A DNA stretch of 64,000 nucleotides, taken from NCBI GenBank assembly GCA_030065855.1, contig JASJCT010000002.1, positions 5,414-69,413 of the forward strand. The letters are read 5' to 3'. Shown here piece after piece: positions 36,705-61,942 of this stretch. Made by a program: the position numbers and the translations under genes. The notes beneath the pieces are model-generated. The model saw nothing but the letters and a program-made list of their open reading frames with translations, was not told the DNA's origin and made no database searches. Numbering within the stretch: the stretch's first letter is position 1; each line of letters begins with the position of its first letter. The DNA comes from Myxococcota bacterium. GTDB taxonomy: Bacteria; Myxococcota_A; Polyangia; JAAYKL01.

Positions 36705-36947
36705 CCTCGTCGTAGGGGCGCATCGGGATGCGCCCGTTGTCATGCGATGCGCCCTGTCCCAGGGACCAATCGGGGGACGGACCAATCGGGGGACGGACCA
36801 TCGGGGGACGGACCATCGGGGGACGGACCATCGGGGGACGGACCAATCGGGGGACGGACCAATCGGGGGACGGACCATCGGGGGACGGACCATCGGGGGA
36901 CGGACCATCGGGGGACGGGCGGTTCGCGAACCGCCCCTACGACGAGG
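36705..36947. repeat. REPIN-like element: inverted pair of GTAG-family REPs
   Basis: GTAGGGGCGCATCGGGATGCGCCC (36712-36735) and, on the minus strand, GTAGGGGCGGTTCGCGAACCGCCC (36917-36940). The outer 16 bp CCTCGTCGTAGGGGCG form a perfect inverted repeat. Confidence 0.85.
36765..36918 (+). repeat. Tandem array of ACCA(A)TCGGGGGACGG, 10 units
   Basis: 16-bp (A) and 15-bp (B) units in the order AABBBAABBB. Confidence 0.97.
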
Positions 36948-54286: not shown

Positions 54287-55132
54287 ATGTACCAAGACCT
54301 TGAGGAAATCAACCGCCGTCCCACTCCATTTTCCTGCTACACAGCAGCAGATCTGTGGACCGACAGGCATACCTCTTCCAAAATGTTGGCCTATCATCTC
54401 GACGGTACAATCGACATCTCGTCGAGAAAAACGGCGTTCATCGACAGATCTGCGGCCTGGATTGCATCTCGCTTTGAGCTCGGTAAGGGAAAAATCGCAG
54501 CTGACTTTGGCTGTGGACCTGGGTTGTACACGACGCGCCTTGCTACGTCTGGAGCTACGGTCACTGGTATCGACTTCTCCGAACGTTCGCTTCAGTACGC
54601 GCGCGAGATGTCGAGGCGCAAGGGGCTATCGATTGAATACATCCAGACCAACTATTTGGACTTTAAATCGGACCAGCGATTCGACCTAATCACAATGATC
54701 ATGTGCGACTACTGCGCCCTCAGTCCAGACCAACGACATATGATGCTCGATACGTTCCTAACACATCTCCGGCCCGGAGGCGCGGTGCTGCTGGACGTCT
54801 ACTCACTGCGTGCCTTTAATGCAAGGGAGGAGACGGCCGCCTACGCCCACAACCTCCTGGATGGGTTCTGGTCTCCAAACCCTTATTTCGGATTTTTGAA
54901 TATATTCAAATATGAAGACGAAAAGGTAATACTAGACAAGTTCACCATTGTGGAGGAGAAACAAAAGCAGGTTTTTTACAACTGGCTGCAATACTTCGAC
55001 CGGGAAGCACTGAAGAAGGAAGTCGAAAAACAAGGTCTGCGGATCGATGCCTTCCTCGGCAATGTTGCGGGTGACGCCTTTGACCCAGCACTGAACGAAT
55101 TCGCCATCATTGCAAGGAAGCCGACCCATTAA
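54287..55132 (+). CDS. Class I SAM-dependent methyltransferase
   Basis: DFGCGPG, TGIDFS and LRPGG motifs; GGAGGT RBS. Confidence 0.92.
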   Translation: MYQDLEEINRRPTPFSCYTAADLWTDRHTSSKMLAYHLDGTIDISSRKTAFIDRSAAWIASRFELGKGKIAADFGCGPGLYTTRLATSGATVTGIDFSERSLQYAREMSRRKGLSIEYIQTNYLDFKSDQRFDLITMIMCDYCALSPDQRHMMLDTFLTHLRPGGAVLLDVYSLRAFNAREETAAYAHNLLDGFWSPNPYFGFLNIFKYEDEKVILDKFTIVEEKQKQVFYNWLQYFDREALKKEVEKQGLRIDAFLGNVAGDAFDPALNEFAIIARKPTH

Positions 55133-55494: not shown

Positions 55495-57291
55495 ATGACG
55501 AAGCAGGCTAAAAGAAAAAAGCTGCGCACCTGGGTCTGGACCCGTTATATCCCCGCGGCCGCGGTGGCAGCGCTCCTGCTAGGGGCTGAATGTGAATCCG
55601 AACTGGAACGGTTGCCTGAGCTGCAGGAAGGTTCTCAACTGAGCGCCCTGACCCACAAATACTCCCAGCTGATGCAGCCCTGGGGTAGCTACTGGCGCTG
55701 GTCCCAAAATGGCGGCCAGCCGCTGGTAGCGAGCGGTGCCGAGTTGCCCGACTTTTCCTATGCCGGAGCCATCAATGGCACCTACAGTATACCGCAGCGC
55801 ATCGTGACCGTCACCCACGACAGCGACGACTGCAGCTCATACAACGATCAGTCGCCCTGCATCAACGCCTGGCTGCAAGAGGCCTCCGATTACTCAGCAC
55901 TGCTGCTAAAGGCCGGCGTCTACAAGATTCGTAATCCCATCGTGATACCGCCGACCAAGGTGCTTCGGGGCGAGGTAGACGGCAATGGTGTGCCCACCAC
56001 CAAGATCTGGGTTGATCTCGATGGAAGCGCCAGCGAGCCTACGGTGGGACAAGCCTACATCGTGGGATATCGAGGCCCCACCGAGGTTCAATCCTGGGGC
56101 AACGCCCCGTGGGTCAACAGCGTCCAGGGGGACGTGGCGGCAGGGTCAGTGGTGATTCCGGTGAAGTACGATCCGGGCCTAACGGGCATCACAACCGGCG
56201 ATTTCGTGTCCATTTCTCAGACGTTCAGCGACTGGAATGACCGCTGCAACGATTTTGTCAAGCTGTACAACACGGTGGACAGCAGCTGCCAGATCGATGG
56301 CCAGGATATCTGGAATAGCGGCAGCTCCACAATCGCCTATCTGCGACAGGTTCAGTCCATCAATCGCACCCCGCCCTACTCTATCACCATCAGCCACCCT
56401 ATCCGCCATCTACTTCGTTGGCAGGATCACTCCCACGTACGCAAAATCACCTTCATGGCCCAGAAGGTCGGCCTAGAGAACATCAAGATCGGTTTTACCC
56501 CCACCCATAACTGGGACACTGACGATTGTGAGAGCAACATCAACGGGTGCGGAACCGAGCAGACCTATGCCGCAGCACGGGCAGTGTTTTTCGGCAACGT
56601 AATCAACGGTTGGATCAAAAACGTCCACAGCTACGACCTGTCGTACAATCCCCCTGACCTTCACCTACACAGCCGTGGCATCGAACTACACACCTCCCAA
56701 TGGGTCACCGTGGAAAACACCTCCATGCAGCAGCCCGCCCACGTGGGCGGAGGTGGCAACGGGTATCTCTACACGCTCACAAACAGCGGTGACTGCCTGG
56801 TGAACAATGCCACCGCCGTCGACGGACGTCACAATTTCCTGTTCTATGGCGCCGGGAGTACGGGCAACGTGATCACCAGCGGCACATCCACCAACGGCAA
56901 ACTCACCAACGACTCGCACTTCGCCATGGCCCATGCCAACCTAGTGGAGAGGTTCACCCACACGGGCAACGTGTCCACCGAGAACGCGGCCTTCACCATT
57001 GCCAATCGTTATGCTGTCAGCAATGGCGCGGGACAGACCGGAGCTGATTTTACGTTCTGGAATGTCTCCGCCACCAAGCCAGTTAAATCCCGTCAGGCCA
57101 CGGCCAATGCCTGGGGCTACGTGATCGGAGCCTCCAGCGCCGACAGCTCCACCAGCACTGAGTGGCGCGAGCACATCGGTATCAACCTTTCTGAGCTACA
57201 GCCGCAATCCCTTTGGTGGGCCCAGTACACCAGCCGCAGGTACGATAAGTCGAACTATCAGGCCAACACGGGCATCGTGCCTTGGTGGTAA
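55495..57291 (+). CDS. Secreted pectin-lyase-like (right-handed beta-helix) protein
   Basis: AAGGAGG RBS, N-terminal signal, LPDFSYAG, AGVYKI, VLRGE, VGLEN, GGGNGY, GRH and NLVE motifs; strongly GC3-biased codons unlike its AT-rich flanks. Confidence 0.75.
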   Translation: MTKQAKRKKLRTWVWTRYIPAAAVAALLLGAECESELERLPELQEGSQLSALTHKYSQLMQPWGSYWRWSQNGGQPLVASGAELPDFSYAGAINGTYSIPQRIVTVTHDSDDCSSYNDQSPCINAWLQEASDYSALLLKAGVYKIRNPIVIPPTKVLRGEVDGNGVPTTKIWVDLDGSASEPTVGQAYIVGYRGPTEVQSWGNAPWVNSVQGDVAAGSVVIPVKYDPGLTGITTGDFVSISQTFSDWNDRCNDFVKLYNTVDSSCQIDGQDIWNSGSSTIAYLRQVQSINRTPPYSITISHPIRHLLRWQDHSHVRKITFMAQKVGLENIKIGFTPTHNWDTDDCESNINGCGTEQTYAAARAVFFGNVINGWIKNVHSYDLSYNPPDLHLHSRGIELHTSQWVTVENTSMQQPAHVGGGGNGYLYTLTNSGDCLVNNATAVDGRHNFLFYGAGSTGNVITSGTSTNGKLTNDSHFAMAHANLVERFTHTGNVSTENAAFTIANRYAVSNGAGQTGADFTFWNVSATKPVKSRQATANAWGYVIGASSADSSTSTEWREHIGINLSELQPQSLWWAQYTSRRYDKSNYQANTGIVPWW

Positions 57292-57445
57292 GCTTTCTTT
57301 TTTTGCAATGCTTCCTTGTAATCTCGAACAAATGACCATATCCGTTGTAACGCTTCAATTCGTTACCATTTGCTCTTGGCAGCCACCCTAGGACTGAGAG
57401 CTCTTCTCAGCCCCTTGCTCTTGGGCCAGTCATCTGGCAAAATCC

Positions 57446-58096
57446 TTACTTCGCTGACCTCAAGACCATGTCCATCAGTGTTCTATTGTCTGAATAGTCC
57501 AGGATCCAGAGATCACACTTTCCTCTCAACTCTTGCCCAACACCTACAAACTGCCATCCAACCGTCCGTGTACACTCAAGGTCCCACTGTGCATCCCCAA
57601 AATATATGATGCTGTCGAAGTTACCCCCGAGCCTCGACAAGCACTGCAGCATTATCTCGATTCGTTTAACACAATCATCACTTGAAACCAGCGGCTCATC
57701 TAGAAGCTGGAAACCGCCATGAACAAGTTTCATCCTCGCAGTATGCCCCCAATCTCCGGTCGCAATGCCCACCTTCACAGCGGTTTGTTCCTGAAGTGCC
57801 TCGAAAAACGCAACCGCCCCTGGCACTGATATGCTCCCCTCAGTGCTTTCTAAGTGCTGATAGATCGCGTATCCAAAACGTTCTCTTACCCTTTCTACGT
57901 TCTGGCGATCACATATATCGTTGTCCGCCATGATTTGTAGTAAAATCCCCACATCAGTGGCGGTCTTGTACTCACTCCAGTCAGTGCGGATCGAAACGTC
58001 TCCAAGGACCTCTTTAACAGCGCTGATATAACATCTATCATCGAAGCCCTGGCTGTTTACAAGTGTGCCGTCAACATCAAAAATAACCGCAATCAT
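57446..58096 (-). CDS. HAD-family hydrolase
   Basis: [11 protein letters not shown] and FGDAQWD motifs; true start at ATG 58096. Confidence 0.9.
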
Positions 58097-59562: not shown

Positions 59563-60075
59563 ATGTTCAAAAAGACCAATCCACAGCGCGAGTTGTTTAG
59601 AGTCGAAACGAAAATACCGCAAGGGCTCCGGGCTCGGCTCAAAGGGTCATGGGCGGAGGTATTTCGCAACGAGGTGCTCTCCACCCTCATGGACTGCGAA
59701 GAGGATTTCTCGATTCTCTACGGCATCACGGGACGTCCGAATTTCAGCGTCGGTCGCATGTTGGGTTTGTGCTTGTTGCAGGAGCTCAATCGGCTGACGG
59801 ACAAAGAGGCACTCGATGCCTTCGGTTTCGACATCCGATGGCAATATGCTCTCGACGTTACTGGAGACGAAACATACCTTTCGAGACGATCGTTGGTGGA
59901 GTTTCGGAGTCGGTTGGTCAAAGCGGATCCGGAGATGAAATTGATGCGCGGCGTGTTCAATCGTATCAGTCACGCAGCAATCGAAAAGCTCGGGGTGTCA
60001 GTAGCCGAGCAACGACTGGATTCTACGCACATTCAATCAAATATTCATTCCCGTGGCCGACTTTCGTTGTTTCAA
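59563..60075 (+). pseudogene. Truncated DDE transposase (IS5/IS1182-like, DUF772/InsH N-terminal domain)
   Basis: LY..TGRPN, LQEL..LTD.EA, FDIRWQYAL, SLVEFR.R and QRLDSTHI.SN (first catalytic D). Homology ends where the repeat array starts. Confidence 0.85.
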
Positions 60076-60176
60076 GGACAAACTGGGGACGGAGGACAGG
60101 ACAAACTGGGGACCAAACTGGGGACGGAGGACAAACTGGGGACCAAACTGGGGACGACCAAACTGGGGACGGAGGT
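60076..60176 (+). repeat. Irregular tandem array of CAAACTGGGGAC (6 copies)
   Basis: Copies start at 60079, 60102, 60114, 60132, 60144 and 60159, separated by GGAGGA/GAC fragments. Confidence 0.95.
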
Positions 60177-60438
60177 CTTTATTCAACTAGATTGGGCAGT
60201 TGGCATATCAGACTCAAGGCGCTTTAATCAGTTGGCTGACTTCATCGCTGATTTTGTAATGACTCGATATTCATGGGTGTTCTTTGCGCTTGGTTCAGCG
60301 CACTTCGAGACATAGCAGAGTGCTTTGAGCACCGTGAAGCGAGAATCCCTATCATTTCTGATAGATCAATGCCTTCCCGCTTCCCTTTGCAGCAAGATCT
60401 TTAACGCCCCTGATCTGTTTTTTACTCCACGATGTTTA

Positions 60439-61158
60439 TCACGAGCGCAGAGGTCTACCCCGTATCCTGATCGCATATAGCAAGCCCTCGAAGTCTGATG
60501 TGCATCGCGGTGTGTCCACTGTTTCATCTGGACAGTCGTCAATCAGACTCTGTTGTCGCAAATATAAGTCACACAGTCGCCGGTACTTCTTCCGTCGCGC
60601 TGCTGCCGTCTTTCCACACCCTAGATATGCCTGCGGCGGCGTTAGGTGCGCCGTGTACTTATTTCTCTCACCAAATGCATAGAACCGATAGGAGGAGTGC
60701 TTGTAGTTGGAGGGGTGATAGACTATCCCGGCCCTTACCGGATTGGCGTCGCAGTAGAACATGGTTTTGAGCACTTCATATTCATTCTTTATTTCAGTCG
60801 TTCTCGGACGGTCATAGGCCACTTTACCCTGGCGACCGTGTCTTCGATTATAGCCCATGCCAAATCTGGAATGGGCGTTTCTCATCCAATTTCCAAGCAA
60901 CTTAACAGCTTGTTTAAGACCCCTTTTCTTGTTGATTTTAGGGAGCACGCGTCCCACTTCGTGGGTGTGGGTTCCCATGAGGCAGTAGCCATGGACCTGA
61001 ATGTTCTTTCTGAAATTTTCGGTATAAGTATCGAACAGTGCATTGAGATAGTTGTATTTTTCGGCATCCTGGGCAAAGACGCACTCTCGATTATGGGCGC
61101 GCCACATTTTGTGGAAAACACCAGTAACGGACAGGGAAAGGGATCTTGGGGTGCGCAT
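60439..61158 (-). CDS. REP-associated-type tyrosine (HUH, Y1) transposase
   Basis: MRTPR, FHKMWRAHNRE, YCLMGTHTH (HUH), YNRRHGRQG, FYCDANPVRAG (catalytic Tyr) and YKHSSY motifs. Confidence 0.92.
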   Translation of the reverse strand: MRTPRSLSLSVTGVFHKMWRAHNRECVFAQDAEKYNYLNALFDTYTENFRKNIQVHGYCLMGTHTHEVGRVLPKINKKRGLKQAVKLLGNWMRNAHSRFGMGYNRRHGRQGKVAYDRPRTTEIKNEYEVLKTMFYCDANPVRAGIVYHPSNYKHSSYRFYAFGERNKYTAHLTPPQAYLGCGKTAAARRKKYRRLCDLYLRQQSLIDDCPDETVDTPRCTSDFEGLLYAIRIRGRPLRS

Positions 61159-61281
61159 GATTCAGATACCTGTCAATCTCTGTGCCAAAAACAGAACCTA
61201 AGCAAATACGGACTGATAGGAAAGGAACCCAGCACTTAGAGCGGCGACATGAGGTGGCGACCGGCGGGTTCGCCGCTCATA

Positions 61282-61454
61282 TTGCCGATGTGGATTGGCC
61301 GATCATTCCACCTCCGTCCCCGTGACTGTTGCCGATGTGGATTGGCCGATCATTCCACCTCCGTCCCCGTGACTTTCCACCTCCGTCCCCGTGACTGTCC
61401 CCGTGACTGTCCCCGTGACTGTCCCCGTGACTCCGTGACTTTGTCCCCGTGACT
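61282..61454 (-). repeat. Nested tandem array: 47-bp unit x2, then a shorter unit, then GTCCCCGTGACT repeats (7 full copies in total)
   Basis: TTGCCGATGTGGATTGGCCGATCATTCCACCTCCGTCCCCGTGACT(G) at 61282 and 61329; a 22-bp version at 61375; 12-mers at 61397, 61409, 61421 and 61443. Confidence 0.95.
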
Positions 61455-61645
61455 TGTAGAGGAGAAACAAAAGCGGGTTTTTTACAACTGGCTGCAATAC
61501 TTCGACCGCGAAACACGAAACACTGAAAAAGGAAATCGAAAATAAAGGCCCGCGGATCGATGCCTTCCTCGGCAATGTTGCGGGTGACGCCTTTGACCCA
61601 GCACTGAACGAATTCGCCATCATCGCGAGGAAGCCATTCAACTGA
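61454..61645 (+). pseudogene. Diverged duplicate of the 3' end of the methyltransferase gene (54948-55132)
   Basis: Long identical stretches (e.g. GCGGATCGATGCCTTCCTCGGCAATGTTGCGGGTGACGCCTTTGACCCAGCACTGAACGAATTCGCCATCAT); a 7-bp duplication CGAAACA causes a frameshift. Confidence 0.92.
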
Positions 61646-61694
61646 AAATGACATCCCAATCTAGAAAAAAGTTGGAACGAGAAGATCCCAAGAC

Positions 61695-61775
61695 CCTTAC
61701 GTCGCTGGCCTCAGGACCATGTCCATCAGTGTTCTATTGTCTGAATAGTCCAGGATCCAGAGATCACACTTTCCT
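61695..61775 (-). pseudogene. Duplicate of the 3' end of the HAD gene (57444-57524)
   Basis: 81 bp with three mismatches by eye. Confidence 0.92.
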
Positions 61776-61942
61776 ACTTTCCTAACCCTTGATTATGACA
61801 CTCCCCCTTGAAGATTACTCAAATTTAATAGAATATCTTCGGCAGACAGAATTGTTTTGCGTTACCTCGCTCGCTTCTGTCTGATACGTTAAAGGTCTGA
61901 GCCAGCTGTCTGTTCGGAGGCGCTTTGCGAAAGGCCAGGGGC

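Follow-up and report, generated by a model that had tools for sequence, protein, structure and literature searches.

TIRtrons are elements in which a RAYT-like gene, the TIRYT, lies between terminal inverted repeats sharing the motif GGGGWSAS, as described in the relevant parts of Di Nocera, De Gregorio & Rocco 2013 (PMC3733652). We analyzed such a locus in a 64,000 nt stretch of DNA from a Myxococcota bacterium (contig JASJCT010000002.1 of assembly GCA_030065855.1; hereafter the window, whose positions are used throughout). The element is a TIRtron/TIRYT of a Myxococcota clade. It is a member of a named kind, and what is new is the stutter at its ends, which consists of arrays of tandem duplications spanning the junction between flanking DNA and terminal repeat. 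These duplications are real, specific to the ends and found across the family, and the arrays are not part of the original element. On balance, we think that this locus is a TIRtron whose arrays arose as recurrent local tandem duplications over the flank/repeat junction, generated when the enzyme nicks the DNA, a short stretch is copied and the strand is resealed.

The locus resembles the published TIRtrons in several respects, as far as the article text describes them (PMC3733652). A Y1/HUH gene lies between terminal inverted repeats instead of REP (repetitive extragenic palindromic) hairpins, the repeats have the common start GGGG(A/T)(C/G), and they are also found elsewhere in the genome, in the published cases as singles, dimers and clusters. 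The sequence GGGGACGG matches the published GGGGWSAS (PMC3733652, in the part defining the motif) at 7 of 8 positions, position 7 being G here and A there. An earlier note on this DNA, made from the letters alone, had recognized a RAYT-like Y1/HUH gene with GGGG(A/T)C-type terminal inverted repeats, which is indeed the TIRtron/TIRYT arrangement. The locus differs from the published elements in that its protein gives no Pfam match and that the host genome holds several diverged copies. Most TIRYTs have been assigned to TnpA-Y1 subclass 2.1, having a C-terminal helix-turn-helix domain (Quentin et al. 2018, PMC6006769, in its classification of the family); no Pfam match to the domains of this subclass (Bac_DnaA_C, HTH_23, HTH_28) was obtained in the 239 aa protein.

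The REPtrons are comparable in that RAYT/TnpAREP, the nearest structure to the enzyme (4er8), acts on hairpin-forming repeats and serves non-autonomous copies in trans, according to parts of two accounts (PMC8266576; PMC3116915). However, the gene studied here has no GTAG-tagged hairpin and is bounded by 12 bp terminal inverted repeats instead, three full copies are present where a RAYT gene is typically found once per genome, and the repeated units do not comprise whole REPINs but part of an end together with 5-11 nt of flank. The ordered REPIN clusters of P. fluorescens SBW25 are tandem REPINs including their flanking sequences, for which a second, unknown mechanism is given in the relevant part of that study (PMC3116915). 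These clusters were also the nearest parallel that we found: the text of the RAYT, REPIN, TIRYT and Y1 literature searched, figures and supplements lying outside the search and some articles being represented only in part, holds no description of junction-spanning nested duplications at TIRYT ends.

The Y1/HUH fold and the lack of a target site duplication are shared with the IS200/IS605 elements, such as IS608 and ISDra2. These elements carry unlike subterminal hairpins at their two ends, have no terminal inverted repeats, are cut at both ends on one strand and insert beside a short fixed target. In contrast, the element in the window has a perfect terminal inverted repeat and mirror-image ends with mirror-image scars. 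Its parts are as follows.

60165..61321, minus strand: element proper, from innermost repeat to innermost repeat, 1157 bp
60439..61158, minus strand: gene for a RAYT-like Y1/HUH enzyme (TIRYT) of 239 aa, intact open reading frame (ORF) with HUH motif H64/H66 and presumed catalytic Y135
60076..60164, no strand: left stutter array, five outer partial copies (CAAACT or GACAAACT as flank plus GGGGAC, some reaching GGAGG) and short irregular pieces
61322..61454, no strand: right stutter array, nested partial copies of the right end with two further complete 12 nt repeats (61357-61368 and 61379-61390)

Tandem duplications across the flank/repeat junction

The 12 nt GGGGACGGAGGT at 60165-60176 is 100% complementary to 61310-61321 and to the two further complete repeats of the right array, so that the gene is flanked by perfect 12 bp terminal inverted repeats 1133 nt apart. 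DNA homology to the paralogue on contig C46 of the host genome (79%, blastn) covers exactly 60165-61321. The earlier note had claimed an intact Y1-HUH gene bounded by a perfect 12 bp inverted repeat and the absence of a target site duplication, and both statements agree with the ORF at 60439-61158, the complementarity of the repeats and the flanks, which read CAAACT on the left and GTGACT on the right.

Outside the repeats, CAAACTGGGGAC occurs six times on the left and AGTCACGGGGAC, as its complement, seven times on the right. Neither has another copy in the whole 7.08 Mb assembly, for which chance predicts ~0.8 copies of each. Successive unit ends of the form ...GTGACT in the right array are separated by 47, 22, 12, 12, 12, 8 and 14 nt, and the 47 nt pair is 100% identical. 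Given this spacing of the shared ends, the nesting of the right units and their common outer end are real, as had been claimed; the unit list given with that claim has to be corrected, since its last unit is 14 nt and not 12 nt. Likewise, the left array does hold six CAAACT-GGGGAC copies, but it is less regular than was stated, with units starting at CAAACT or at GACAAACT, and it contains a 30 nt super-period. Splitting the left array after each GAC accounted by eye for some pieces and not for others, and this division was dropped. A Watson-Crick fold was found in neither array (z 0.30 and -1.74), and the description of the ends as telomere-like turned out to be without basis.

The host genome is a metagenome-assembled draft of 228 contigs and 7.08 Mb, and we compared the arrays with Logan contigs, built independently, of the single public run containing this stretch. 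The left array lies within a single 3184 nt contig, and the right array is recovered as a chain of overlapping pieces at the depth of its flanks, in both cases without differences. As the run is probably the source sample, this agreement excludes an assembler quirk but not a library artefact and is silent on rare variants. For the read support of the arrays, these separately built contigs agree with the draft and none of them is variant, all being assembled contigs of that one run.

To place the arrays in their family, 100 related loci (20 from public genomes and 80 from metagenomes) were considered, of which 77 were analyzed (13/20 and 64/80), making 80 with the three host copies; in the 23 dropped loci, the match was incomplete or interrupted by the end of a contig. 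The 20 genome records are all metagenome-assembled genomes labelled Myxococcota, Polyangia, Myxococcales, Deltaproteobacteria or proteobacterium. We counted exact tandem duplications with a period of 8-70 nt and at least two copies in 150 nt windows at the ends and in control windows of the same loci. They were present in 35 of 104 end windows and in 24 of 1037 control windows (odds ratio 21, Fisher p 5e-24), figures that overstate independence because the loci are related. Moreover, 15 of the 24 duplication-bearing control windows contain GGGAC or GTCCC and may be further ends. The two ends behave alike, with duplications at 22 of 63 upstream and 13 of 41 downstream ends. Measured from the innermost repeat, duplication coverage is 27-28% at positions -20 to -1, falls outwards, amounts to 5% at +10 to +19 and is 0 beyond +90; with the innermost copy as the zero point the arrays lie outward by construction, whereas the flank-only duplications do not.

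It had been predicted that the flanks of homologues carry arrays of the core with a flank part varying per end, and this is what we observed, the core being GGGAC and the flank differing at every end. Exact repeats of an N + GGGGAC unit stand at 12 places in the host genome, compared with 0-4 for permuted hexamers not overlapping the motif. Seven of these 12 continue with GGAGG, and three are 18 nt repeats of another kind.

The anatomy of the duplications was read from boundaries called on exact repeats only. Of the 29 duplications ending within -2 to +25 of the repeat start, most have a period of 8-15 nt. The junction ambiguity of all 29 is 0-3 nt with a mean of 1.1 nt, against a random expectation of ~0.67; microhomology is thus close to chance, indicating that the events did not use pre-existing repeats. 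In nested arrays (window right, window left, C46 left, L007 upstream and L033 upstream), the length of the flank lead is constant and the inner extension takes 2-4 values, ranging from 0 to 34 nt where the nesting could be parsed cleanly; L038 and L006 are exceptions to the constant lead. The common outer boundary proposed from the right array accordingly holds within nested arrays, but neither boundary is constant from locus to locus. Since the units are perfect copies while the gene copies are 70-85% identical, the arrays are young. Consistent with this, the duplications vary between near-identical loci: L067 and L068, the same locus in two metagenome records with ~96% identity, differ by exactly one 12 nt junction-spanning unit and are a natural before-and-after pair.

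The enzyme, its copies and its relatives

The 239 aa protein has no Pfam match, even at E ≤ 10, and scores 32.5 bits with the NCBIfam model REP_Tyr_transpos (NF047646), under its cut-off of 80. From 230 candidates 102 homologues were kept, none of which (0/102) has a precomputed Pfam domain; their source labels are hypothetical protein or putative transposase, and RayT for the distant ones. An alignment of 36 homologues shows H64 and H66 (in H-T-H-E), Y135, N139 and P140 to be invariant. The profile built from these 36 gave no match to PDB sequences at E ≤ 1. An AlphaFold model on the same alignment reached a predicted local distance difference test score of 89.5, and its top PDB match is 4er8, E. 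coli TnpAREP with a REP hairpin (E 2e-5), followed by the transposases of ISDra2, IS200 and IS608. The best 25 PDB matches listed by Foldseek (ranks 1-29) are all Y1 transposases (4er8, 2xma, 2xm3, 2f4f, 2vjv, 2a6m and others) with a probability of 1.00. The C-terminal 80 residues of the model are helical. The invariant HUH and tyrosine residues together with the fold identify the protein as a divergent RAYT-like Y1/HUH enzyme, its membership of the HUH/Y1 superfamily resting on motifs and fold, not on Pfam.

The three full copies of the gene in the host genome have 100, 85 and 70% protein identity, and fragments are present on contigs C140 and C21. Homology among the host element copies extends from repeat to repeat. 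The 11-mer GGGGACGGAGG occurs 36 times in the host genome compared with 6 times for a reversed control. These sites include solo ends and an ~80 bp gene-less miniature on contig C155, which forms a hairpin with the repeats as its stem on both strands (z -5.6 and -5.75) and carries arrays on both sides. Arrays at this gene-less copy were counted for action in trans. Further ends of the flank + GGGGAC type were noticed at C227:27875-27910, where AAAAAGGGGGAC stands three times ahead of a GGACC-type repeat, and at C140:28486, C140:31152 and C130:24148; contig C140 has two ends of the same orientation and a 5′ gene fragment. This variety points to several repeat sub-families and decayed copies in the host genome.

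Across the related loci, the coding strand reads the repeat core RGGGACGGAG(G/C) upstream of the gene, at 61 ends, and the complement of the core downstream, at 41 ends. The core is retained down to 28% protein identity, with no conserved position beyond -2, although conservation at positions 0-7 is partly by construction because part of the core served to find the ends. The flanks differ at every copy and show only a weak A-rich tendency. In some related loci (L002, L008 and L010), the gene is accompanied by whole miniature hairpins. Two copies of a distant member on one metagenome contig, L086 and L087, are 100% identical over 1136 nt, so this sub-family moved recently; downstream the identity stops exactly at the repeat, and upstream it continues ~33 nt past the gene-proximal GGGAC. 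In short homologue contigs, the repeat is ≤120 nt from the contig end in 7 of 16 upstream and 4 of 8 downstream cases, in a collection whose contigs are short anyway. The 11-mer GGGGACGGAGG was also found in five of six genomes of one sister family at 29-52 copies, which is 4-8 times the reversed control; this abundance may be due to a more distant enzyme or to another repeat. Over 151 genomes of the class, the frequency of the 11-mer showed no clean association with presence of the gene.

Between the start codon and the right-hand repeat lie two further features.

61173..61187, minus strand: sigma-54-like -24/-12 motif TGGCAC-N5-TTGA, ~14 nt ahead of the start codon, read from the sequence
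61232..61285, no strand: subterminal inverted repeat of GGCGA/TCGCC words with 16 nt arms, 81% complementary, between gene and right repeat

The first was recognized by the sigma-54 consensus. A stricter form, TGGC-N8-TGC, precedes the gene in 40 of 77 related loci; on the reverse strand it was seen in 0 of 77, and among control windows in 14 of 1607. Its distance to the gene is 26-67 nt overall and 26-41 nt in 39 of the 40 loci. The copy in the window has GA in place of GC at -12 (TTGA) and hence falls outside these 40. With the motif so near the ATG, an mRNA started from it would be nearly leaderless. By eye, close homologues have similar GGCGA/TCGCC words at the matching place between gene and upstream repeat, and more distant ones have a GTGTCCGGAATCCGGACAC-type palindrome directly after the repeat instead. 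Judged from their position, these words and palindromes near the upstream repeat are possible binding sites.

The host genome also harbors a canonical family of 38 GTAG-tagged REP hairpins (e.g. on C7, C94, C104, C117 and C183). Arrays adjoin the untagged 3′ side in 7 of the 38 (9 by automatic count) and the GTAG side in one. They consist of the 3′ hairpin half plus 3-27 nt of flank in 3-4 copies, or abut the foot of the hairpin. One GTAG-REP doublet lies in the window at 36712-36940, with GTAG + GGGGCGCATCGGGATGCGCCC facing GGGCGGTTCGCGAACCGCCC + CTAC. Its linker is made of about ten 15/16 nt units GGACCA(A)TCGGGGGAC, and the first REP is accompanied by a partial copy of its own 3′ arm, so that the doublet has the same build as the stutter at the element ends.

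Neighboring genes and the right-hand breakpoint

The element is bordered by pieces of other genes on both sides.

59563..60078, plus strand: N-terminal fragment of an IS1182-family (DDE) transposase (Pfam DUF772, E 4.8e-11; NCBIfam transpos_IS1182, profile positions 34-151 of 488)
61454..61775, plus strand: displaced fragment, a copy of the 3′ end of a methyltransferase gene followed by a copy of 57438-57524, the 3′ end of a HAD hydrolase gene

The earlier note held that the arrays amputate both neighboring genes and took the system for one that remodels the genome. On the left, tblastn with a 619 aa homologue from contig C1 covered only residues 22-197 (window 59563-60087), and the remaining parts of the IS1182-type gene were detected nowhere in the host assembly. 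The alignment extends across the first CAAACT and reaches into the first GGGG, which means that the supposed N6 of the left units is target DNA and that their flank part derives from the IS1182 gene. By sequence, the left junction looks like a plain insertion into the IS1182-type gene: the transposase merely runs into the element, and no breakpoint coincides with a unit boundary on this side. A second N-terminal IS1182 fragment, on contig C43, has no repeat beside it.

Genome remodeling has only partial support, which comes from the right side. The displaced patch of 320 nt stands where the rest of the IS1182-type gene would be expected, and it matches the last ~180 nt of the methyltransferase gene at 54287-55132 (89.6% over 182 nt, blastn) and then 57438-57524 (94.3% over 87 nt, blastn), the source genes coding for a Methyltransf_25 protein and a convergent HAD_2 protein. 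The methyltransferase homology begins right after ...GTGAC, ≤1 nt from the common outer boundary of the right units, so that the displaced fragment is joined almost exactly at a unit boundary. A rearrangement breakpoint and the unit boundary therefore coincide on this side, with adjacent deletion, recombination or joining by the enzyme as possible causes. The patch fuses the ends of the methyltransferase and HAD genes, while the original site has a 598 aa ORF between them (55495-57291, no Pfam match); this ORF thus either entered the original site or was lost from the copy. An 8 nt tandem duplication, ACTTTCCT in 2.1 copies, lies in the patch as well, at 61768-61784. Among 31 related genomes searched with 6 kb of the locus for an empty site, no genome proved close enough, the search yielding beyond paralogous element copies only short matches of 65-87% identity, so DNA removed by the insertion is not visible.

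Origin and meaning of the duplications

The nicking route that we lean towards can be set out step by step. The enzyme, acting on the repeat or on the stem formed by both repeats in single-stranded DNA, would nick one strand a few nucleotides outside the repeat, at this element probably 6-8 nt outside GGGGAC, and would remain covalently bound to the 5′ side of the nick. Host polymerase would extend the free 3′-OH of the flank into the repeat over a short, variable distance, stopping frequently after GGGGAC or at the repeat edge, and the enzyme would then reseal the held 5′ end onto the new 3′ end. At the next replication, one daughter would gain an extra copy of the nick-to-stop interval. Repeated cycles would yield nested units with a common outer boundary, and the same break might now and then end in a rearrangement, as at the right end.

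Several lines of evidence are consistent with this route. The duplications are end-specific and mirror-symmetric, occur at a gene-less copy, show chance-level microhomology and have one anchored boundary, and all five features fit a nick followed by short synthesis from the 3′-OH and resealing. In particular, we favor nicking of the G-rich strand at the outer boundary, followed by synthesis that proceeds inward and stalls at the bound repeat, because this would account for the outer boundary being constant, for the clustering of inner boundaries at the repeat edge and behind GGGGAC, and for the right-hand breakpoint. From these patterns we infer the authorship of the enzyme, the strand and position of the nick and the role of the polymerase. 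HUH enzymes leave a 3′-OH able to prime synthesis or to resolve the 5′-phosphotyrosine link, and TnpAREP cuts in the single-stranded flanks 5′ and 3′ of its hairpin, as stated in parts of one account (PMC8266576). 

A nick whose 3′ end is extended while the old 5′ strand is kept gives a tandem duplication starting from the nick, as in the termination of rolling-circle replication by HUH Rep proteins and at genome-editing nicks. The likeness of the stutter to these nick-primed systems is an analogy of mechanism only.

A number of observations weigh against this account. Exact duplications are missing at 69 of the 104 ends, about two thirds, and one intact host copy, on contig C73, has none. Across loci the outer boundary is variable, lying 6-11 nt outside GGGAC (-6 to -11), and the inner boundary falls into three classes, before GGAC (10/29, flank-only), after GGA (3-5) and after GGGAC (7, including this element). 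No dinucleotide at the outer boundary, such as the CT/CA sites of RAYTs would suggest, survives correction (best p 0.012-0.04 before 64 tests), and the fixed cleavage position outside GGGGAC assumed in the earlier note could not be set, neither as a position nor as a dinucleotide. Automatic parsing into inner extension plus flank lead was clean in only 19 of 64 inter-unit segments, and the two-copy events are equally compatible with nicking at the inner boundary and synthesis running outward. The GTAG-REP arrays show, by eye, the opposite regularity, with the inner boundary near the hairpin apex and a variable outer one. The sister family rich in GGGGACGGAGG has no homologue of the enzyme at E ≤ 1e-10. 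To our knowledge, biochemical data exist for no TIRYT.

The duplications might instead reflect replication errors made without catalysis by the enzyme, in which the repeat stem (as hairpin or cruciform) or a protein bound to it stalls the fork and the nascent strand switches template or slips, recopying the junction. The C155 miniature and the REP hairpins fold strongly, the duplications abut the stem foot, and once two units are present plain slippage can expand them, with which the uniform 12 nt runs and the 30 nt super-period of the left array agree. However, slippage normally needs pre-existing short repeats, whereas the first events show near-chance microhomology (mean 1.1 nt); the nested units have one common boundary without homology there, and a symmetric hairpin stall does not predict one-sided arrays at the GTAG-REPs, whose hairpins are perfect palindromes. 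We regard this origin as unlikely, though it is the most serious competitor. An assembly artefact is scarcely credible: the genome is a draft from a metagenome, and the comparison contigs come from a single run that is probably its source, but a second assembler arrived at an identical path, graph cycles cannot create periods of 8-22 nt because these are shorter than assembly words, and loci from many different assemblies and pipelines show this anatomy again.

The whole miniature hairpins beside the gene in L002, L008 and L010 could suggest that repeated insertion and excision left the arrays behind as footprints, or that these go back to ends and miniatures that inserted beside an existing end and then suffered deletions. 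Such footprints should retain pieces of both ends, but the arrays mostly show a single repeat orientation (7 vs 0 in L006, 5 vs 0 in L007, 6 vs 0 in L023, 6 vs 0 in L033, and likewise in both window arrays). In addition, every unit contains a copy of the local flank, a sequence that an inserting element would not carry with it, and 10 of 29 events stop before GGAC and are flank-only, which together make this history improbable. Still less probable, to the point of being nearly dismissed, is the retention of the arrays by selection as functional sites, whether iterated binding sites for the enzyme or a regulator or G-quadruplex tracts. GGGG runs do recur every 12 nt on one strand, and the repeat core is a likely protein-binding site; however, about two thirds of ends do without arrays, only the core is shared while unit length and flank differ at every end, one unit is present or absent between the near-identical L067 and L068, and the arrays lack Watson-Crick structure.

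If the stutter is a scar left by the enzyme itself, the places where TIRYTs cut can already be read from ordinary genome sequences. The enzyme would then work at its two ends as mirror images, which sets it apart from IS200/IS605, and also in trans on copies without a gene, and the scars would yield precise oligonucleotide substrates for a first assay. On the same condition, such elements would produce fast-changing, flank-specific micro-duplications and occasional rearrangements beside host genes. Stuttered ends are hard to assemble and readily mistaken for iterons, telomere-like repeats or CRISPR-like arrays. We raise, as a tentative and somewhat doubtful generalization, that TIRYTs are machines for site-specific nicking, copying of a few bases and resealing, whose nested units record single cycles and map the cut site, whose broken end sometimes joins foreign DNA and so reshapes the surroundings, and whose reaction is the one by which clusters of REPs, bacterial interspersed mosaic elements (BIMEs) and REPINs grow, the GTAG-REP hairpins of the host genome having one-sided partial arrays built alike. 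If this were true, nicking, copying and resealing would supply the long-missing means by which such clusters expand.

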